Assembly: GCA_963784355.1 (NCBI GenBank)
Contig: CAWAQU010000003.1
Coordinates: 64,001 to 128,000 of the forward strand
Reading direction: 5' to 3'
DNA from: an uncultured bacterium
Lineage (GTDB): Bacteria; Patescibacteriota; JACMRA01
Length of the DNA stretch: 64,000 nt
Position numbers and translations under genes: made by a program. Shown piece after piece: positions 1 through 58,345 of this stretch. Within the stretch, counting starts at the first letter, position 1, and every line of letters starts with the position of its first letter. The notes beneath the pieces were generated by a model that was given only the letters and a program-made list of their open reading frames with translations, was not told the origin of the DNA and ran no database searches.

Positions 1-466
1 TTACATAAGCTTTTAGCCAGGCTCTATGATTAATATCCACTATTTCTTCAATATCGCTTTCAAGTGTTGGTCTAATTTTTATCTCATCATTTCCACCAAA
101 ATCTGCCTTCTCTTCTTCACTCATTGATGTAGTGCCTTTAGTTCTTAGATCATTAAGTAATTCTACTTTAAGTGGTTGGTTGTGCTTTTCAAATAACGTT
201 ATTGCTTCTTCAATGCTGAATTCTTGGACTTTATAGCTCAAGTTTTTTTTGAGTAAATCTTTTATATGTTTTTCTATCAAGGGTAAATCCTCAGGTATCA
301 GTGTTCTAGGCAAAATAAAATCGTAGTAGCATCCTGTATCGATTACAGGACCTATTCCGAACTGAGCCTCGGGAAACATTTGCTTGACCGCTGCTGCCAT
401 TATGTGGGCAAAAGAGTGACGTTTGGTATCTAATAAAAGATTTTGAGAAGATTTTGGGATGGACAT
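1..466 (-). CDS. thrS: Threonine--tRNA ligase, 5' part (runs off the window start), with an apparent GNAT insertion
   Basis: Hand translation from ATG 466: MSIPKSSQNLLLDTKRHSFAHIMAAAVKQMFPEAQFGIGPVIDTGCYYDF, matching the ThrRS N2 motif RHSxAH...GP.I..G.YYDF. Not in the ORF track. Confidence 0.93.
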   Translation of the reverse strand, partial: MSIPKSSQNLLLDTKRHSFAHIMAAAVKQMFPEAQFGIGPVIDTGCYYDFILPRTLIPEDLPLIEKHIKDLLKKNLSYKVQEFSIEEAITLFEKHNQPLKVELLNDLRTKGTTSMSEEEKADFGGNDEIKIRPTLESDIEEIVDINHRAWLKAYV

Positions 467-515
467 AAGTAATGAATGGTGGTTACAAGGTTTGAGGATT
501 TTAATGGAAAATTAC

Positions 516-549
516 AAAATAAAAAATCTCCCTGGATTGGGAGTAGATT
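516..549 (-). terminator. Intrinsic terminator (attenuator) in the thrS leader
   Basis: Minus-strand CUCCC-AAUCCA-GGGAG followed by AUUUUUUAUUUU, about 50 nt before the thrS ATG. Confidence 0.85.
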
Positions 550-580
550 GAAGTTTAAAATAAAATTAGTCAAACTGCAG

Positions 581-631
581 CTACCCCTTTAACGGGTTTG
601 TAGTAGTTGTTGTAGTCTGAAGCGAATTCAT
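581..631 (-). CDS. Thr-rich leader peptide MNSLQTTTTTTNPLKG
   Basis: ATG 631 to TAG 581 with six consecutive ACT/ACA codons, between a promoter and a terminator upstream of thrS. Confidence 0.88.
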   Translation of the reverse strand: MNSLQTTTTTTNPLKG

Positions 632-641
632 ATTCTTTTTA

Positions 642-670
642 ATTATAGTTGTAATCTATATATTAGTCAA
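642..670 (-). promoter_or_regulatory. Sigma70 promoter of the thrS leader
   Basis: TTGACT-17 nt-TATAAT, 10 nt before the leader ATG. Confidence 0.8.
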
Positions 671-977
671 CTTTAGGCGGTTGAACTTTGTCAGCTTTTC
701 TATTTCTAACCTCATCAACTGCAGCCTGAGCTTTTTTTATTTCTTCTAAAGTCCGTGGTGTAAATAATGTAAAATACATAGCTTTGCTATCATCTCGATT
801 ATCTTTTCCGAGCATACCCAATGTATCAAATTCAGGTTTGGGCATAGTACTTAAAATTTCAGGCCAGAGTACAACAAAAATAGCAACTATTATTGCATCA
901 AATGTTTCAGGAACTAGCTCTCCCTGTTCTGAAATTTCTATTTGGTCGTAAAGTATAGGTTTTTGATATTGTTCCAT
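663..977 (-). CDS. Hypothetical protein
   Basis: 104-aa ORF, no family recognised. Confidence 0.6.
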   Translation of the reverse strand: MEQYQKPILYDQIEISEQGELVPETFDAIIVAIFVVLWPEILSTMPKPEFDTLGMLGKDNRDDSKAMYFTLFTPRTLEEIKKAQAAVDEVRNRKADKVQPPKVD

Positions 978-1041
978 ATTACTTTAACAATAGCATATAA
1001 TTCTAAATTTGACTAGAGTTAATTTTTATGCGTTAGATTAA

Positions 1042-1785
1042 ATGTTGCCCATTTTTAATACAATTTTATTATTTTTTATGTCTGAATACACTCCACCTAT
1101 AAATCACAACATTGTAAAAGTGTCAAAGCCCCATAAAAGTTTTGAAAAAAGGGACAAGTTTACAGCTAAAAAAGAATTTAACAGTGTCAATAAAAAATCT
1201 TCTGTACTCATGCCATCACAAAATAAAACGGAAATGGCTAATATGACTAGATTTTTGGAGCCTTTTGGTAGAGTTGAAGTTCGAGCTAATCCTAAAGTTG
1301 CTACAGTAATAGAGGCTGCGATAAATGCAACTCGTGCCGTTTCACAAGTCTTGGGTTGGGATTTAGATGAGCGAATAATGGAAACAATCCAATTAACTGC
1401 TGGCCATGTAAATTCGGATGCTGTTGATCTTTGCGATGCTGCTTTTATTGCAAAATTTGGTAAGTTTGGTAAGTTTGGTAGAAAACCTTGGGGTTATAGT
1501 ATAACAATGACCTTTGATGAAATTACAGAAGAACGAGTGGATCCCAATGGTCCTTATAGAAGTATTATATTTAAATGTTATGCCGATTTACGTAAACTTC
1601 GTAATGACTTTGGTATATCAAAGTTAATCAATCCTGCAGCTACAGCGGAATTTCCTAATGTCTCGTTAAAAGCCAACTCAAATAAACAAGAACCTAAAAA
1701 CACGAATAACTTTAATAATATCCCTTTAATAAACAACTCAAACAGAGTAAAACTTAATAGTCTCAAAGAGAAAAAAGTTAACTAG
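1042..1785 (+). CDS. Hypothetical protein (start may be 1078)
   Basis: 247-aa ORF with an Asn/Lys-rich tail and a short KFG x3 repeat. Confidence 0.65.
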   Translation: MLPIFNTILLFFMSEYTPPINHNIVKVSKPHKSFEKRDKFTAKKEFNSVNKKSSVLMPSQNKTEMANMTRFLEPFGRVEVRANPKVATVIEAAINATRAVSQVLGWDLDERIMETIQLTAGHVNSDAVDLCDAAFIAKFGKFGKFGRKPWGYSITMTFDEITEERVDPNGPYRSIIFKCYADLRKLRNDFGISKLINPAATAEFPNVSLKANSNKQEPKNTNNFNNIPLINNSNRVKLNSLKEKKVN

Positions 1786-1800
1786 AAAATTATATTCCTA

Positions 1801-2277
1801 CTACGCAATTTTTCTAGGTTTATCAGTTCTTCTTTGCTCAGAGTGAACAATATGAGGTCTGAAATGATTATCAGGACTTATTTTTTCATTTAATTGAGAT
1901 AATTTATCAGATACCGGGGATATTTCCGGATGCCTTATCTCTAAGCCCGGTTTTTTTCCGGGTTCTAAATATTTATTTATTTCCATAGTACCACCCTCTT
2001 TTGTTTCCATAATTGCTTTTTTGATCAAAAATATATTACCCTTTGTTTGTTTGATTTTCCCCTCAATGCCTAACAAGTGGTATATCTTATCATGTTTAGT
2101 TAAAAGTAATTTTTCCAGATTTCTATAGTATAGTAGCTGTTTAGCAAATTCTTTAAGCAATGACTGGAGGTATTGTTTTTTATTAACTAGTAGATTTGAA
2201 GTTGATTCCGAATTATTTTTCGTTTGGACTTCACTATCTACATTTGGGGTTCCAAGAAAAGAATGATCACTAAACAT
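1801..2277 (-). CDS. Hypothetical protein
   Basis: ORF 1801..2352; ATG 2277 (MFSDHS) taken as the likely start. Confidence 0.6.
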   Translation of the reverse strand: MFSDHSFLGTPNVDSEVQTKNNSESTSNLLVNKKQYLQSLLKEFAKQLLYYRNLEKLLLTKHDKIYHLLGIEGKIKQTKGNIFLIKKAIMETKEGGTMEINKYLEPGKKPGLEIRHPEISPVSDKLSQLNEKISPDNHFRPHIVHSEQRRTDKPRKIA

Positions 2278-2423
2278 AATATAAGTTGATAGATAAAATT
2301 TCAATAAAAAGCAACTATACATTTCTAAATTAAAAGGTCCAATTTGAAGCAAGCAGCCTTGACAAAAAATCCAAAAATTATAAGTCTATGGCTACTTAAA
2401 AATTAACAACAATTTATATAAAT

Positions 2424-2795
2424 ATGACTTTAAGTCGCAAACTACTAGCAACTATTTTCGGAACAGTATTTACTTTAATCGGATTATTAGGTTTCTTCAA
2501 CGATCCAGTACTTAGCCTTTTTGATGTAGATACTATCCACAATTTTGTTCACTTAATCACAGGTATTGCAGGCTTAGTTTACGGTATGCAAAATAACGAT
2601 ACTGCAAAAAGATACGGCCAGATATTTGGTGCAATTTATGGGCTAGTGACTCTTATGGGATTTGTAATGGGCGAAGGTAAATTACTTGGTTTGATGAGTA
2701 TTAACAATGCAGACAACTACTTGCATTTATTTTTATCTGCAGGTTTGATTTATCTTGGTTATTTTATGACTAGTGATGAAGTAAAAACTGTCTAA
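2424..2795 (+). CDS. DUF4383-like small membrane protein
   Basis: Four hydrophobic segments with HNFVHL and ADNYLHL motifs. Confidence 0.8.
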   Translation: MTLSRKLLATIFGTVFTLIGLLGFFNDPVLSLFDVDTIHNFVHLITGIAGLVYGMQNNDTAKRYGQIFGAIYGLVTLMGFVMGEGKLLGLMSINNADNYLHLFLSAGLIYLGYFMTSDEVKTV

Positions 2796-2816
2796 AATTT
2801 CATTTTATTTAAAATT

Positions 2817-2843
2817 TCCTCTCTTTATGGGAGGTTTTTTGTT
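2817..2843 (+). terminator. Intrinsic terminator
   Basis: CCTCTC-TTTAT-GGGAGG followed by TTTTTT. Confidence 0.7.
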
Positions 2844-2889
2844 GACAAAATAGGGTTTTTAAGTTAGTTTAATTGTGTTGAGAATTACT

Positions 2890-2966
2890 GCAACCGTAGC
2901 TCAGTTGGATAGAGCGAAGGCCTTCTAAGCCTTAGGTCACAGGTTCGATCCCTGTCGGTTGCACCA
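2890..2966 (+). tRNA. tRNA-Arg(UCU)
   Basis: Acceptor GCAACCG/CGGTTGC, anticodon arm AAGGC-CT TCT AA-GCCTT, GGTTCGATCC T-arm, encoded CCA. Confidence 0.97.
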
Positions 2967-2979
2967 CTATATAATAGCA

Positions 2980-3004
2980 TCCCCATAATGGGGAATAATT
3001 TTTT
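2980..3004 (+). terminator. Probable terminator after tRNA-Arg
   Basis: TCCCC-ATAAT-GGGGA hairpin followed by a T-tract. Confidence 0.55.
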
Positions 3005-31956: not shown

Positions 31957-33276
31957 CTAACTTATTAACTTAACAATCATATTCTCCCCTGTTTCTCTAA
32001 TTTTTATCTCAATCCCACCATTTTCCAGACTCTTTTTAGAAATAATAATTTGGACTGCACATCCTATTAAATCTGCATCTTTCAATTTCTCGCCCATACT
32101 AATCCCCTGTCTGTCATCCCACAAAATTTCTTCAGCTGAGACCTTAGTATTTTCAACCAAATTGAAGGTTTTATCATCGTTTTCAACTAAACTAAATTTG
32201 CCTAAATACAGATTTTGTGCTATACTTAGGATTTGATTATTTACATTTTCATCATCTTTTTCATTGATATTGGTAACAATGTGAAATTCAAAAGGCGCTA
32301 CTGTTTTAGGCCATTTTAACCCTTTTTCGTCATTATATAATTCAGCAACTATGCCCATGCAGCGTGTAATACCAATACCATGAGCGCCCATTAATGGGTA
32401 TTTATCTTCATTATTTTCATCTTTATAAGTTAGTTCAAAAGCTTTTGTGTATTTATCACCATATTTAAAGATATTTCCAACTTCAGCTGATACCGCCTTA
32501 GTTAAATTGCTAGGTAAATCACCTTTTTGCTTTAAATCTTCATAAACTTCCATATTACAAGCAAAATTGCCCTCCTCGGAATACAGTATCTCATCTTCAC
32601 CTGCCTCACATATAACTTGGAATTCATGGCTCATATTTTCAGTAAAAATTCCGCCACTTGCTTCTACTACATAAGCTTTCATGCCCATTTCAGTATAGCT
32701 AGCCAGATAAGCCTGTTTAATCATTTCATAATATTTATCAAAAGATTCTTGGGTTCTATGAAAATCATACATATCTTTCATTTTAAACTCTCTGCCACGC
32801 AGTATTCCGGATTTAGCTCTTAATTCATCTCTAAACTTAGTTTGTATTTGATATACAGATAAAGGTAATACATGATTTTCTGGATCTGTAATAGGTAAGT
32901 CTTTCCATGATTTTATGAAATTTTTCGCAATAGGTACAACCTGCTCCTCATGACTGCAAGCAAGAGCGTATTCTGTTTTAGTTTGGCTTTCCAACTTGAA
33001 AAGAATATCAACACTATCCCATCTGCCTGTTGTTTCCCAAAAAGCTTTTGGATGTAAACTGTTCATCAGTATCTCCTGGCCGCCAATAGCATTCATATGC
33101 TTACGGACAATATTCTCAATTTTATTTAGCACCCTAAGCCCCAATGGTAGATATGAATATACCCCGGCCATGGTTTTATGCACAAATCCTGCTTTAATAA
33201 GAAGCTGAGCATTTTTACTGGTTTCATCTGCAGGTACATCTCTGCTTGTTTTAGTGAAAAGATTAGAAAGACGCAT
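31957..33276 (-). CDS. proS: Proline--tRNA ligase (short type, no full editing domain)
   Basis: MRLSNLF, GVYSYLPLG, YQIQTKFRDELR, REFKMKD, SHEF and GIGITR motifs. Confidence 0.96.
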   Translation of the reverse strand: MRLSNLFTKTSRDVPADETSKNAQLLIKAGFVHKTMAGVYSYLPLGLRVLNKIENIVRKHMNAIGGQEILMNSLHPKAFWETTGRWDSVDILFKLESQTKTEYALACSHEEQVVPIAKNFIKSWKDLPITDPENHVLPLSVYQIQTKFRDELRAKSGILRGREFKMKDMYDFHRTQESFDKYYEMIKQAYLASYTEMGMKAYVVEASGGIFTENMSHEFQVICEAGEDEILYSEEGNFACNMEVYEDLKQKGDLPSNLTKAVSAEVGNIFKYGDKYTKAFELTYKDENNEDKYPLMGAHGIGITRCMGIVAELYNDEKGLKWPKTVAPFEFHIVTNINEKDDENVNNQILSIAQNLYLGKFSLVENDDKTFNLVENTKVSAEEILWDDRQGISMGEKLKDADLIGCAVQIIISKKSLENGGIEIKIRETGENMIVKLIS

Positions 33277-33404: not shown

Positions 33405-33432
33405 AAAAACAAAAAATTCCCTATAAGGGATT
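33405..33432 (-). terminator. Intrinsic terminator (attenuator) in the proS leader
   Basis: UCCC-UUAUA-GGGA followed by AUUUUUUGUUUUU. Confidence 0.7.
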
Positions 33433-33473
33433 GGAGTAAGCTTGAGCCAAAATAAAATAAATCCAGCCCAAGC

Positions 33474-33518
33474 CTATCTAGGCGGGAAATTAACTGAATT
33501 TAAGTTTGAATATTTCAT
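33474..33518 (-). CDS. Pro-Pro leader peptide MKYSNLNSVNFPPR
   Basis: ATG 33518 to TAG 33474; CCG CCT lie one codon before the stop; between a promoter and a terminator upstream of proS. Confidence 0.7.
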   Translation of the reverse strand: MKYSNLNSVNFPPR

Positions 33519-33527
33519 TACTCTTTA

Positions 33528-33557
33528 ATTATACCATAAATTGAAATCTGTTGTCAA
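33528..33557 (-). promoter_or_regulatory. Sigma70 promoter of the proS leader
   Basis: TTGACA-18 nt-TATAAT with TGn extension, 9 nt before the leader ATG. Confidence 0.8.
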
Positions 33558-53429: not shown

Positions 53430-54185
53430 TCAAGAAACCCAACTCAACCAAGTTTGGATAATTTTTATTTGGTCTTCATCTTTTAGGTCCAATTCAGGGT
53501 GCCATTGCATCCCCAAAATTTTTTTGTTTTTTATAGAGACTGCTTCAATTAAACCATCCGGAGCCACTGCTTCTACTTGTAAACCCTCGCCCAATTTGTC
53601 TACTCCTTGATGATGTATACTTGTCACCATGATTGTATTTTTATTTAAAACATCATATAGGATTCCATCTTTTTTTAAATCTACTGGGTGCACTTTTCCG
53701 GTTTCTACACTTTCATTATCAAAATCTCCATCTTCCTGCTTTTCTGCAGTATATTTAATGTGCTGCACTGGAGCATTTTCATCAAGGTGCTGAATTAAAG
53801 TACCGTTTTGGACTACGTTCAACATCTGGAAGCCACGACAAACAGCTAGTACAGGCAAATTCCTTTCCATTGCAGCTCTAATTAAATAGTAGTCATACCA
53901 ATCTTGAAAATTTTCGCTAGTTTTATTTTCCGGTCCAGTAGTGTACATACCTGGATCAATGTCTTTACCTCCAAGTACTATTAATCCGTCAGCCTCGCTG
54001 ATATATCTGGAAATTTCATCTTTTATGGTTTCCATATCATTAATTTTTGTGTGGAAAAAAGGTACTTGTGGTAAAAAACTCTGTTCAAGTAAAAAATCGG
54101 ACCATTTACTATGAATATAAATTATGGGCAAACCTTCTTTATAGGTCATAAACCTTGGTGAAATTAGTATTTTTTTCATTTTCAT
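53430..54185 (-). CDS. Peptidase C26 / gamma-glutamyl-gamma-aminobutyrate hydrolase family (PuuD-like)
   Basis: GGKDIDP, AVCRGFQMLNV, SIHHQ and QWHPE motifs. Confidence 0.92.
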   Translation of the reverse strand: MKMKKILISPRFMTYKEGLPIIYIHSKWSDFLLEQSFLPQVPFFHTKINDMETIKDEISRYISEADGLIVLGGKDIDPGMYTTGPENKTSENFQDWYDYYLIRAAMERNLPVLAVCRGFQMLNVVQNGTLIQHLDENAPVQHIKYTAEKQEDGDFDNESVETGKVHPVDLKKDGILYDVLNKNTIMVTSIHHQGVDKLGEGLQVEAVAPDGLIEAVSIKNKKILGMQWHPELDLKDEDQIKIIQTWLSWVS

Positions 54186-54196
54186 AAAATTTAATA

Positions 54197-54221
54197 TTAA
54201 AAAATCTCCCTAAATGGGAGT
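54197..54221 (-). terminator. Intrinsic terminator (attenuator) just upstream of the C26 hydrolase gene
   Basis: CUCCC-AUUUA-GGGAG followed by AUUUUUU. Confidence 0.8.
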
Positions 54222-54473: not shown

Positions 54474-55019
54474 TCAACTAAACTGATAGCCTTTCAATTG
54501 ATTTTTATGGTTTTTAAAATCAAGATCAAACTTGCCGACCAGATCCCAAAAAGATTTAGAGTGGTTTTTTTCTTTTACATGAGCAAGTTCATGGATTGCC
54601 ACATAGTCTAGTAGCTCAAGTGGCACCAAGGCCAGTCTCCAGTTTAGACTAATCACATTTTTACCGCTACAAGAACCCCAGCGCGTATTAGCACTTGAAA
54701 GACGAAATTTAGTATAATTTAAGTCCATAACTTCTGACCAATGATCCAGTCTAGACTTAAGTAAAACTCTGGCTTTCTTTTTAACTTCAACCTCTTCGCT
54801 TTTAGCAACCCCAAGATTGGGGGCAGTATTTCGCTTTCTTTCTAAAACTCTTTTGATAGTATTTTGTATCCAAATCTGTTTTTTTTGAATAAAATCGTGT
54901 ATGAGATTTAAATTTGCTCTATTGGGTGCCCTTACTATCAATTCCGCATCTTTGGTGATTTGCAGACTGAGAGTTTTGCGTTTTGAGTAAATGATGTTTT
55001 TGGGAGTAATAAGGCTCAT
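54474..55019 (-). CDS. YgjP/DUF45 (M48-like) metallohydrolase
   Basis: SKRKTLSL, VRAP, RWGSCS, LNWRL, HELAH and NHS..FW motifs. Confidence 0.92.
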   Translation of the reverse strand: MSLITPKNIIYSKRKTLSLQITKDAELIVRAPNRANLNLIHDFIQKKQIWIQNTIKRVLERKRNTAPNLGVAKSEEVEVKKKARVLLKSRLDHWSEVMDLNYTKFRLSSANTRWGSCSGKNVISLNWRLALVPLELLDYVAIHELAHVKEKNHSKSFWDLVGKFDLDFKNHKNQLKGYQFS

Positions 55020-58000
55020 TATGATTCTTTTGATTCAAAAAACCTAGCTACATTCCAGATTTTATTTCCAAAATTGCGATATTTTTCACACATTTTGTCC
55101 GCAAGTTTTCCACCGAGTCTAAAATTACGATTTGGAATCATGTTGCTCATCATCGCCAATCTAAGACTATCTGAAGAAAATTTTTCAATCTGATCTTCCA
55201 CATTTAACCCGTTACCTAGGGATTTGCTCATTTTTCGTCCATGCTCGTCTAGAACAGTTGGGTGAATAACTACATTTTGGTAAGGAGTGCTGCCTGTAAA
55301 GTATTTTGAGACCAACATCATGCGCACAATCCATTGGTAAAATATCTCTCTGGCACTAACTAAATCTTTGGTAGAGTAATATGTTTCAAAATCAGTATTT
55401 TTCTGCCCTTGCAGATGGTCTAAATATCCAAGTGTACTAAGCGGCCACAAACAAGAACTAAACCATGTATCTAGTATTTTTGTTTCCTGCATCCAATTTC
55501 CTGGAATTTCAGGTTTTTCCGTACCGATTTGGATTTTTTCTTGGACTGCAGGATCATTTTGCCACTCATTAAAATTATAAAAAATGCGATTTGGATTTTT
55601 TTCTAAATTGTACCACACAGGGAATCGATGACCCCAAACCAGGTCTCTTGAAATACACCAGTCTTTTACACTTTCCAGATAGCTTATTGCTCTGTCTTTA
55701 AACTCTACCGGGTAAAAATTAGTTTCCTCAGCAGCTTGTAAACCGATTTGCTGTAAATTATTGGGTTTCTCAAGCCAAATTACTACAAGACCGTTGCTTT
55801 GAATTTTGTTGTAGTATTGCTCACCAAAAAGATTTTTATAGGTTTCTTTTATATCATTTATGGTATAATTTTCTTGAATTTCGGGTACAATTTGTGTGAA
55901 ATCAAGTTTTACACTTGCAGCTGAATCTAGATTCTGATATGTCTCAACTTTTTTAATGTTAAATTTGTAAATTTTGTTGTTTACTTTATCATTTAATTCT
56001 ATAATATCTCCTGATTTCATATCACCAAAGTATTTGTCTGGTTCTTCAGGATTTAAAGCCCTAGTTTCAACAGATTTTTCTCCTGATAGGATTTTATTTA
56101 AAATATCTAACTGTAGATCATTTCTAAAATTTAAAGACCAGGTTTTAGTATTGCTATCTTCACCAGTACTTTTTACTACAGGATTAGTGTAGCTCAAGAA
56201 GAACTCTTCTGAAATTAGGGGTTCAATAACCGTTTTTGATCTCTCGCAAATTACCACATTATGCTCATAATCCCAATTTATATCCAGTTCTTCACCAATT
56301 AAATCACGTAGAAATTTTATTCCTTCTTTGTATGAGTAGTTTGCTGGATCAAAAGCTTCACTTTTTAGACTTTTGGCTACTTTTTCCCTAATTTTTGCTT
56401 CCTGTTCAATAAATTCGGTTTTTACTGGTACAAATTCTGTTTCTATAAGTTTTTTAATAACTGCTAACCTACCCTGCTCTACCGTCAACCCTTCAAACTC
56501 ACCACAAGCTTCAGTAAGTTTTCCATCTCGATTTATAGGATGCTTAAATCCAAAGCTATACCAACTTTTATTTAAAAATTCTTGATATAATTCATAATCA
56601 AATTGATCACTGGCCGGAGTGATTTTTAATATACCTGTACCAAAATCCGGATCGACTTTTTCAGAAATCAGAAGCCTAATCTTTTTTATATCCAAACTGG
56701 GTAGCTCAAAAGATATACCTAAAAGACCCGTTTTAATTGCTTCAATGGTTTCCAATGCAATTTTTTCATCAAATCCCCCATGGTCTCTTTCAAAAAGATC
56801 TAAGTTAAAGTATTCATAAAATTTACTTGGGTGCATGGCGATTCCAATATCCCCAAAAATTGTCTCCGGCCTAACAGTTGATACTTTTACTCTGGGTAAT
56901 TCAAGAGCGGATTTAATATATTTAGAAGCAAACTCATACAAAAAGGCTTTGTCCGGATTTTTATTTTGATCAAACTCCACCCCACTAAATTTATACTCAA
57001 AAGTAATAAACGGATCCACTCTATTTTCGTACTCAATTTCCCCGGCCACATCACTCACCGCAGTTTGCAGGCCAACGGACCAATTCACCAAATAGCTCCC
57101 TTTGTAAATCAACCCATCTTCCCAGTACTTTTGAAAAGCATAATTTATCATTTTATTAGCTCGCTCGTCTAAAGTAAACAAACTTCTTTGATAGTCCGGA
57201 GTGTCTCCCAAAATAGAACTTTGCATTTTTTGATGATCTCGCCACTCATCCACCTTGGACCAAGCTAAATCAACCCAAAGTTCTCGGTTATTTTGTTTTA
57301 ACCACTTTGGCCAAGTATTTTTTTCAATATCTTTCAATTCAGGTGCTGTTTCTAAGATTTTTTCATCAAAATCACCTTTTTTAATCAATTTATCAATCAC
57401 CCCTTCCAACTGTATTCCGGCATGATCTACTCCCGGATACCATAAGGTTTTTTGAGCTTTTTGTCTGTGAATTCTGGTTAAAGTGTCCATTAAATAGTGT
57501 TGAAAAGCATGTCCTGTATGTAAGGCTCCAGTAAGATTTGGCGGGGGCATTAAAATGCTATAATTCTCGTTAGCACCTACCTCCTTATGTAAAAATTCAA
57601 TTATTTTAGGACTGATTGGGTACATTTTAGTCGCATAAAAGTCATATTTTTCCTGCTCAGATGTAAATTCATTAGTGGTGTGTCCAATTTCATCTGGTAT
57701 AAAGAAAGTAGAATAAGAATTTTCAATTCCAAATATAGGCTTTTCTGTAGCAGTACCCTGTGTGATATGTTCTTCAGTTAATATTTCTCCATTTGGCAAG
57801 GCAATAGCCAGAGCCTGCACCACATACATTTTTCTGTCTTTTCCTTCAAGTTTTTCTAAGGCCTCATGAATTTTTTGCTCGGCAAATCTATCCCTATCTT
57901 CTTTAGACAATGAGTTGAAATATTCATCACTATCTCCAAACATTACTTTTTTACTATCCGTTCCAGGCCAATCTAAAGCTGAAAAGACAAAGCCCCTGTC

Positions 58001-58345
58001 TTGTGAAATTGTGGGTAAATTACTAATTTTAGCATATTCTTTAGCTTTAGTCAGGGCATCCTGTGTAAAACTCTCTCCGGTTTCTTCAACTTCAGGAAAA
58101 TCAATATGTGGTAAATCATTCAAAGTCAGCAGTTCAAAATGCTTATCTAGAGCAAGTTTTTGCCAAGCTAATTTAAAAATTTTAATTTTGTGTTTGTTGG
58201 TAGTTGCAAACAGGACTTTTTTTAATGAAGTCTCTAAATTTTGATTTTTTATTTGAATTTCAGGTGAACCCACTCCATTATTTTGCCAGGTATTATAGAT
58301 ACTTTCTTCAAATTCTTTCGGATTATAGCTGCTAGGCAAAGACAT
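55019..58345 (-). CDS. valS: Valine--tRNA ligase catalytic part with Ham1-like and ASCH-like insertions; no anticodon-binding domain
   Basis: YNPKEFE, MPPPNLTGALHTGHA, PGVDHAGI, TVRPET, DWCISRDLVWGH, LDTWFSS and KMSKSLGN motifs; ends NKIWNVARFFESKES*. Confidence 0.92.
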   Translation of the reverse strand: MSLPSSYNPKEFEESIYNTWQNNGVGSPEIQIKNQNLETSLKKVLFATTNKHKIKIFKLAWQKLALDKHFELLTLNDLPHIDFPEVEETGESFTQDALTKAKEYAKISNLPTISQDRGFVFSALDWPGTDSKKVMFGDSDEYFNSLSKEDRDRFAEQKIHEALEKLEGKDRKMYVVQALAIALPNGEILTEEHITQGTATEKPIFGIENSYSTFFIPDEIGHTTNEFTSEQEKYDFYATKMYPISPKIIEFLHKEVGANENYSILMPPPNLTGALHTGHAFQHYLMDTLTRIHRQKAQKTLWYPGVDHAGIQLEGVIDKLIKKGDFDEKILETAPELKDIEKNTWPKWLKQNNRELWVDLAWSKVDEWRDHQKMQSSILGDTPDYQRSLFTLDERANKMINYAFQKYWEDGLIYKGSYLVNWSVGLQTAVSDVAGEIEYENRVDPFITFEYKFSGVEFDQNKNPDKAFLYEFASKYIKSALELPRVKVSTVRPETIFGDIGIAMHPSKFYEYFNLDLFERDHGGFDEKIALETIEAIKTGLLGISFELPSLDIKKIRLLISEKVDPDFGTGILKITPASDQFDYELYQEFLNKSWYSFGFKHPINRDGKLTEACGEFEGLTVEQGRLAVIKKLIETEFVPVKTEFIEQEAKIREKVAKSLKSEAFDPANYSYKEGIKFLRDLIGEELDINWDYEHNVVICERSKTVIEPLISEEFFLSYTNPVVKSTGEDSNTKTWSLNFRNDLQLDILNKILSGEKSVETRALNPEEPDKYFGDMKSGDIIELNDKVNNKIYKFNIKKVETYQNLDSAASVKLDFTQIVPEIQENYTINDIKETYKNLFGEQYYNKIQSNGLVVIWLEKPNNLQQIGLQAAEETNFYPVEFKDRAISYLESVKDWCISRDLVWGHRFPVWYNLEKNPNRIFYNFNEWQNDPAVQEKIQIGTEKPEIPGNWMQETKILDTWFSSCLWPLSTLGYLDHLQGQKNTDFETYYSTKDLVSAREIFYQWIVRMMLVSKYFTGSTPYQNVVIHPTVLDEHGRKMSKSLGNGLNVEDQIEKFSSDSLRLAMMSNMIPNRNFRLGGKLADKMCEKYRNFGNKIWNVARFFESKES

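Follow-up and report, generated by a model that had tools for sequence, protein, structure and literature searches.

A putative poly-threonine leader-peptide attenuator upstream of thrS in an uncultured member of the Patescibacteria

Results

The thrS Locus

The window, which is the whole 64,000-nucleotide stretch of DNA that was analysed, has a GC content of ~32% and reads cleanly under genetic code 11. The 5' part of thrS lies at its left end on the minus strand (2..466, ATG at 466), with 155 codons present before the gene leaves the window. The translated 155 amino acids are 100% identical to a database protein of 978 amino acids. This threonyl-tRNA synthetase (ThrRS) scores 560 bits against the NCBIfam equivalog TIGR00418 (thrS; cut-off 383.65). 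Those of its homologues with a taxon label, like the related contigs, indicate the Patescibacteria (CPR).

The ThrRS proteins of the window's clade carry varied domains inserted after approximately residue 125, and the start of the insert lies in the window at 2-85 on the minus strand. The 978-amino-acid protein contains two GNAT domains. In precomputed Pfam annotation, its relatives carry inserted NUDIX, DUF559, HAD or methyltransferase domains. Two of the ThrRS proteins, P0004 and P0005, have N and C termini in common and, judged by eye, very different catalytic cores.

All of the described thrS leader elements (516-670) are on the minus strand and follow the order promoter, upstream open reading frame (uORF), terminator, thrS. 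The -35 hexamer TTGACT (665..670) overlaps the stop codon of the upstream ORF 977..663, and the -10 hexamer TATAAT (642..647) ends 10 nt before the ATG of the uORF. Separated by 17 nt, the two hexamers match the consensus at 11 of 12 positions and form the best promoter-like site in positions 1-3000. Promoter-like sites are not enriched overall in that region (11 found, 13.2 expected from shuffles). Because the -10 hexamer is so close to the uORF, the usual sigma-70 spacing would leave the leader mRNA a 5' UTR of only ~2-4 nt, making it near-leaderless.

The uORF (631..581, minus strand) is a predicted ORF of 16 codons plus a UAG stop and encodes the peptide MNSLQTTTTTTNPLKG. Its codons are ATG AAT TCG CTT CAG ACT ACA ACA ACT ACT ACA AAC CCG TTA AAG GGG TAG. 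It has no Shine-Dalgarno motif, which is uninformative because just 6 of the 59 ORFs in the window have one (GGAG, GAGG, AGGA or AAGG at -20..-4). The six consecutive Thr codons ACU ACA ACA ACU ACU ACA (599..616, minus strand) are the putative regulatory codons, and the window uses ACU and ACA more often than the other two Thr codons. Across both strands of the 64 kb, six ACN codons in a row are present just once, at this site, and in none of 100 dinucleotide-preserving shuffles of the window. The hexa-threonine uORF that had been predicted before thrS is therefore confirmed, with a run unique in the window.

The terminator hairpin (528..543, minus strand) has the form CUCCC-AAUCCA-GGGAG and is followed by AUUUUUUAUUUU. 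Its stem is short, with only five pairs, four of them G-C, and the U tract AUUUUUUAUUUUG (515..527, minus strand) comes directly after it. The spacer between the uORF stop and the hairpin is 37 nt and the U tract is 61 nt from the thrS ATG. No promoter-like site is found between the terminator and thrS (528 to 466, minus strand).

Competing Hairpins

The leader contains four segments that can pair in alternative ways, all on the minus strand. Segment 1 (594..606), the 5' side of the anti-antiterminator, consists of CUAC (606-603), which is part of the Thr run, and CCC (596-594). Segment 2, GGGGUAG (581..587), is made up of the last sense codons and the UAG stop, and is the 5' arm of the antiterminator. 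Segment 3, CUACUCC (540..546), is the partner of segment 2 and has 543-540 in common with CUCCC (543-539), the 5' arm of the terminator. The terminator hairpin is formed by segments 3 and 4. An inner antiterminator stem (552..576) lies between segments 2 and 3, with AGUUUGA (576-570) and UUAAACU (558-552) enclosing an 11-nt loop. The pairing of GGGGUAG with CUACUCC and that of AGUUUGA with UUAAACU had both been proposed, and each is found with seven pairs, one of them G-U.

The antiterminator (587-540, 48 nt) has a folding energy of -12.4 kcal/mol, compared with -7.2 kcal/mol for the terminator and -6.4 kcal/mol for the hairpin at 606-581. Antiterminator and terminator are mutually exclusive, as had been claimed, with both needing 543-540. 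The pairings 1:2, 2:3 and 3:4 are all present, and the leader therefore has the full four-segment layout of a trp-type attenuator, with the regulatory codons in segment 1. The features of this type that are found in the sequence are an ORF near the promoter, tandem cognate codons, an intrinsic terminator, an exclusive antiterminator, the 1:2 pairing and recurrence in related loci. The 1:2 hairpin (606-594 with 587-581) and the near-leaderless start go beyond the original prediction.

Taken over its whole 196 nt, the leader has an unremarkable stability (z = -1.42), equalled or exceeded by 15 of 200 shuffles. Because whole-leader stability is not significant, the case rests on the specific arrangement of the elements and not on bulk folding energy.

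Modelled Ribosome Positions

The ribosome is modelled by keeping unpaired a block of RNA that extends 15 nt upstream and 12 nt downstream of the first base in the A-site codon. The readout is the equilibrium probability of the terminator stem in each ribosome state; equilibrium folding ignores kinetics. In the free window RNA, this probability is 0.92. With the A site on the first to sixth Thr codons, it is 0.50, 0.20, 0.19, 0.11, 0.11 and 0.10, respectively, and with the A site on the stop codon it is 0.96. The claim that a stall on Thr gives read-through and a ribosome at the stop gives termination is thus reproduced in the model (0.10-0.20 for Thr2-6 versus 0.96 at the stop). The modelled switch is stable for 3' footprint edges from A+8 to A+16.

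When the stalled ribosome is masked, the minimum-free-energy structure is exactly the long antiterminator. The hairpin of segments 1 and 2 appears in the minimum-free-energy structure of the free RNA, where it is extended further, and is masked in the stalled states. The terminator wins in the free RNA because segment 1 (CUAC and CCC) holds GGGGUAG. As a control, the spacer between the Thr run and the terminator was shuffled 300 times with dinucleotides preserved, and the switch was scored as the stop state minus the Thr2 state. The score of the window is matched by 6 of the 300 shuffles.

Related thrS Loci

The conserved N-terminal region of 15 aligned ThrRS proteins was used for a scan with one genome per species, and the best 80 of at least 582 thrS relatives were examined. 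All are from metagenome-assembled genomes. Most of the 80 loci are labelled as Patescibacteria lineages and some are labelled otherwise. At least 100 nt of DNA upstream of thrS is present in 78 of them (all except L047 and L080).

In a first scan of 450 nt upstream, Thr runs of five or more codons occur in five loci. In a second scan of up to 2.5 kb of upstream DNA, poly-Thr uORFs occur in seven of the 78 loci (L002, L003, L007, L011, L016, L020 and L022), with runs of 5-8 codons. All seven runs are in short stop-to-stop frames of 19-57 codons. The other 71 of the 78 loci, again among the best 80 of at least 582, have no Thr run. Conservation of the run, on which the original prediction depends, is therefore partial: the same layout recurs in the seven loci and is missing from the 71. 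Degenerate Thr-rich leaders (four or more Thr within six codons) are not found beyond the run-bearing loci, and short ORFs with TT or at least three Thr in L001, L007-L010 and L012 include nothing convincing.

The predicted leader peptides are MQIFVITTTTTQIRE in L002, MQIFVTTTTTAQIRE in L003, MRVSCVTTTTTTPPREG in L016, MRVYSFTTTTTTPSCEG in L020 and MIASGFITTTTTTTTPQAG in L022, each ending at a stop codon. With presumed starts, those of L007 and L011 are (V)FKFVITTTTTTITVLK and (V)KNFVITTTTTTTCKSRG, also followed by a stop.

In each of the seven leaders, the uORF is followed by a GC stem and a U tract. The uORF ends in a G-rich segment that complements the 5' arm of the terminator stem and can also pair with C-rich codons right after the Thr run. 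Which sequences pair varies from one group of loci to another, and the loci range from 33 to 64% in GC content. For example, GGGAGUA pairs with UACUCCC in L002 and L003, GGGGGUAGU with ACUAUUCCC in L011, GCGAAGG(C) with (G)CCUUCGC in L016 and L020, and GGCGGGG with CCCCGCC in L022. The helices are in different registers in the leader alignment, which makes column-wise pair counts unreliable.

For each of the seven related loci, the ribosome-mask model shifts the terminator probability in the expected direction, with varying strength. In L022, the terminator probability is 0.00 in the stalled states (Thr1-6) and 0.97 at the stop (0 of 300 shuffles as high). The stalled and stop values are 0.00-0.36 (Thr1-4) and 0.66 in L002 (5 of 300), 0.00 (Thr4-7) and 0.70 in L011 (33 of 300), and 0.03-0.30 and 0.51 in L007 (23 of 300). 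The shuffle control is weak for L011 and L007, and the terminator of L011 has four pairs. In L003, L016 and L020, antitermination is modelled just for stalls on the first two Thr codons, with values of 0.02 and 0.78 in L003 (0 of 300), 0.02-0.15 and 0.67 in L016 (9 of 300), and 0.01-0.07 and 0.59 in L020 (1 of 300).

The specificity of the Thr runs was examined in 79 upstream regions of up to 450 nt, from the 78 loci and the window. Forward-frame runs of five or more identical residues are of Thr in six of the 79 regions and of Arg in one; no other residue forms such a run. Six Val runs on the reverse strand are the complements of the poly-Thr elements.

In the window and the seven related loci alike, a -10-like hexamer ends 6-10 nt upstream of the uORF start (10 nt in the window, 7 nt in L022 and 6 nt in the others). 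The promoter of L016 is weak, and the promoter geometry of L007 and L011 implies a GUG start. With sigma-70 spacing, all eight leader mRNAs would be leaderless or nearly so. All eight poly-Thr uORFs also stop at UAG, followed by U or C and then by U. Elsewhere, UAG accounts for 9 of 58 stops in the window and for 74 of 284 in the long ORFs of the related loci. The UAG lies inside segment 2 in four of the eight cases and outside it in the other four. The invariant UAG may be part of a timing device.

In two of the run-bearing loci, the poly-Thr attenuator and thrS are separated by a PemK/MazF-like toxin gene (L002, 2021-2455; L007, 1968-2357). The E-values of these genes against Pfam PF02452 are 2.3e-8 and 1.3e-12, respectively. 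From this gene order, the attenuator may place a MazF-like endoribonuclease under the control of tRNA-Thr charging in L002 and L007, and the putative endoribonuclease would therefore switch on together with thrS when charging is low.

Distribution over the ThrRS Tree

In a quick maximum-likelihood tree of 120 N-terminal columns and 77 rows (L018, L023, L046 and L047 left out), eight rows carry a leader, the window among them, and seven of these belong to a single 16-member ThrRS clade with an SH-aLRT value of 98. The remaining leader-bearing row, L022, is outside this clade. Leaders are enriched in the clade (7 of 16, compared with 1 of 61; Fisher p = 3.4e-5), which was chosen post hoc after viewing the tree. 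A parsimony test on the tree gives no clustering (seven changes, a number not exceeded by 120 of 500 shuffles), owing to the lack of resolution inside the clade.

Nine of the 16 clade members have no Thr leader. The close relatives without a Thr run include L001, L004, L005, L006, L008, L009 and L010. In loci with a compact layout resembling that of L002, for example L004, L005, L006 and L013, the upstream gene abuts thrS and there is no leader. In L001, L008, L009 and L010, 250-500 nt of free upstream DNA is present and contains no Thr run. The poly-Thr leader is recurrent but patchy, and it is either lost often or moves with this type of thrS.

L001 and L004 share one contig, where they form tandem thrS-like genes with the second beginning ~73 nt after the end of the first frame; a Thr leader is absent from both. 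Among the contigs with a ThrRS that clusters with the Patescibacteria, several are labelled Limisphaerales, Bdellovibrionales, Vicinamibacterales, Gammaproteobacteria or Chitinophagaceae (L001, L003, L004, L022, L024, L038, L069 and others). These discordant labels may reflect mis-binning, labelling or transfer.

Known Leader Families

In positions 1-3000 of the window, neither a T-box nor any other Rfam leader is found (cmscan, E up to 10). The same search gives no match to the Rfam family Thr_leader, the leader of the thr operon (RF00506). In the 80 thrS loci, no T-box or other Rfam cis-regulatory family is found at the gathering score, and the matches are just tRNA and one 16S fragment. The E. 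coli-type thrS operator consists of hairpins resembling the tRNA-Thr anticodon arm that flank the thrS ribosome-binding site. No such hairpins are predicted ahead of the thrS start in the window: both the minimum-free-energy and the centroid fold leave the 61 nt from the U tract to the ATG unpaired.

Discussion

Proposed Mechanism

The thrS leader is likely a trp-type, ribosome-mediated transcription attenuator that senses charged tRNA-Thr. As a computational prediction, it is probably a real and functional Thr-responsive leader-peptide attenuator. The mechanism first proposed for it is supported, having withstood each of the computational tests able to refute it. Transcription would start a few nucleotides before the leader AUG, and a ribosome coupled to the polymerase would translate the 16-codon leader. 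When Thr-tRNA-Thr is plentiful, the ribosome would reach the UAG and cover segment 2 (GGGGUAG). When no ribosome is present, segment 1 (CUAC..CCC) would pair with segment 2. With segment 2 covered or paired in either of these ways, segment 3 would be free, the CUCCC/GGGAG terminator would form and transcription would end in the U tract, 61 nt short of thrS. A scarcity of Thr-tRNA-Thr would make the ribosome stall on the six Thr codons, covering segment 1 and leaving segment 2 open. Segments 2 and 3 would then pair in the 48-nt antiterminator, no terminator would form and thrS would be transcribed.

Alternative Explanations

Three other explanations bear on the same elements. The uORF could be a general sensor of translation stress, or could control translation or mRNA stability as in erm-type and whiB7-type systems, with the hairpin affecting RNA decay or ribosome access. 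The terminator is weak, with its five pairs; the hairpins of L003, L016 and L022 are 147-204 nt upstream of thrS, with further structure in the interval; and broad-sensing uORFs exist, as described in excerpts of PMC10274678. However, a U tract, the mark of an intrinsic terminator, follows every hairpin, and a pure run of codons for the cognate amino acid is present in all eight cases. Both the minimum-free-energy and the centroid fold of the window leave the start region of thrS open, with nothing there to unmask, and an explanation of this kind is unlikely. It is highly improbable that the product of the small ORF is a functional micropeptide with no part in thrS regulation. The residues F-V-(I)-T before the run are common to L002, L003, L007 and L011, but the peptides diverge widely outside the Thr run (MNSLQ, MRVSCV, MIASGFI), and conservation is seen instead in the pairing logic of the nucleotides and in the location ahead of thrS.

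The hairpin could instead be the terminator of the upstream gene 977..663, with the Thr run an incidental triplet repeat and thrS expressed from another promoter or by read-through. It is 120 nt downstream of the stop of that gene, the -35 hexamer overlaps this stop, and the promoter-like sites of positions 1-3000 are no commoner than in shuffles. Against this, 528-466 on the minus strand offers thrS no other promoter-like site and the Thr run has no second copy in the window. The complementarity of segments 2 and 3 exceeds that of shuffles, and the layout recurs before thrS in seven loci with different, also divergent, upstream neighbours. A terminator serving the upstream gene is accordingly quite improbable, and the Thr-sensing attenuator is the preferred reading.

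Comparison with Known Systems

In E. coli, thrS is controlled by translational autorepression and in Bacillus by a T-box. The mode predicted here does differ from both, as had been stated, yet leader-peptide control of synthetase genes is itself known. The B. subtilis thrS T-box follows the same logic as the switch proposed here, with antitermination and increased ThrRS when tRNA-Thr is poorly charged. The sensor in that system is a direct contact between RNA and tRNA, unlike the translating ribosome proposed for the window. Leader-peptide control of a synthetase operon is established for the proteobacterial pheST attenuator of E. coli (pheM), which has a normal 5' UTR. This attenuator is like the thrS leader of the window in being a synthetase operon with a cognate-rich leader peptide and alternative terminator and antiterminator hairpins; it is unlike it in sensing Phe and not Thr. 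The leader of the E. coli thr operon, thrL, likewise uses a run of Thr codons to drive a four-segment attenuator, but it controls biosynthetic genes and not a synthetase. The E. coli thrL peptide also has Ile codons.

Further parallels are predictions from other phyla. For Streptomyces lividans, excerpts of an RNA-seq-based study propose leaders before leuS, trpS, alaS and thrS, several of them leaderless (PMC8079986). The S. lividans thrL peptide, MKRVRPFLETTPGFVPAR, has two Thr only, and in the same excerpts its authors call termination unclear, with no U-rich tract (PMC8079986). It resembles the leader of the window, so far as these excerpts go, in being a small leaderless ORF before thrS that is proposed as a Thr-dependent attenuator. 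The window leader differs from it as so described in having six Thr codons, a terminator with a U tract and an explicit antiterminator. In Bacillus, predicted His leader peptides replace the T-box before a hisS paralogue and hisZ, according to the consulted part of PMC2965389. These leaders are also cognate-codon leader peptides before a synthetase-family gene; as presented there, they sense His, belong to the Firmicutes and are unrelated in sequence.

Implications

No new mechanism is claimed, because leader-peptide attenuation is textbook and is already known for synthetase genes. For the same reason, the gain is in breadth of distribution and not in a new principle. A clear poly-Thr attenuator would add a well-defined case to the known modes of thrS control and give a rare handle on gene regulation in the Patescibacteria, which are mostly unculturable and generally host-dependent for amino acids. 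It predicts a simple, portable sensor of Thr-tRNA charging. Its recurrence with different sequences suggests that such switches are easily kept or re-made. In the main texts of the literature that was searched, neither a poly-Thr leader before thrS nor leader peptides of Patescibacteria are found. Lopatovskaya et al. 2010, reportedly on attenuation of amino-acid and aminoacyl-tRNA operons, may overlap.

It is conceivable, if rather doubtful, that the Patescibacteria (CPR) hold an undescribed, clade-wide family of near-leaderless poly-Thr attenuators that replaces T-box or protein autoregulation of thrS. If true, this would be the first evidence of coupled transcription-translation sensing of amino acids in ultra-small, mostly uncultured symbionts. 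The attenuator design may also extend to other synthetase genes, for example proS in the window.

Other Sites in the Window

The proS gene (33276..31957) is preceded by a leader region (33413-33556, minus strand) with a promoter, uORF and terminator layout like that of thrS. The promoter, TTGACA-18-TATAAT on the minus strand, is followed after 9 nt by a uORF encoding MKYSNLNSVNFPPR (33518-33474, minus strand), which has two Pro codons (a Pro-Pro motif) near its end and is closed by a stop codon. The uORF is followed by a strong hairpin and then by TCCC-TTATA-GGGA and AUUUUUUG (33430-33418, minus strand), 141 nt before proS. As a second working switch this leader is rejected, with the equilibrium model giving a terminator probability of 0.75 in every ribosome state. 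The pattern TCCC..GGGA-N-TTTT matches just the proS hairpin and is uninformative for terminator usage. Four intergenic upstream regions in the window have a terminator-like site, and two of the four are before synthetase genes.

The valS frame (55019-58345, minus strand, 1108 amino acids) starts with a Ham1/RdgB-type XTP/dITP diphosphatase domain at residues 41-231 and is another synthetase with an extra domain fused to it. A further terminator-like site, CTCCC-ATTTA-GGGAG followed by ATTTTTT (54206-54220, minus strand), lies 20 nt before the ORF 54185..53430. This ORF encodes a glutamine amidotransferase-like hydrolase, and the 288-nt intergenic region upstream of it contains several short ORFs.
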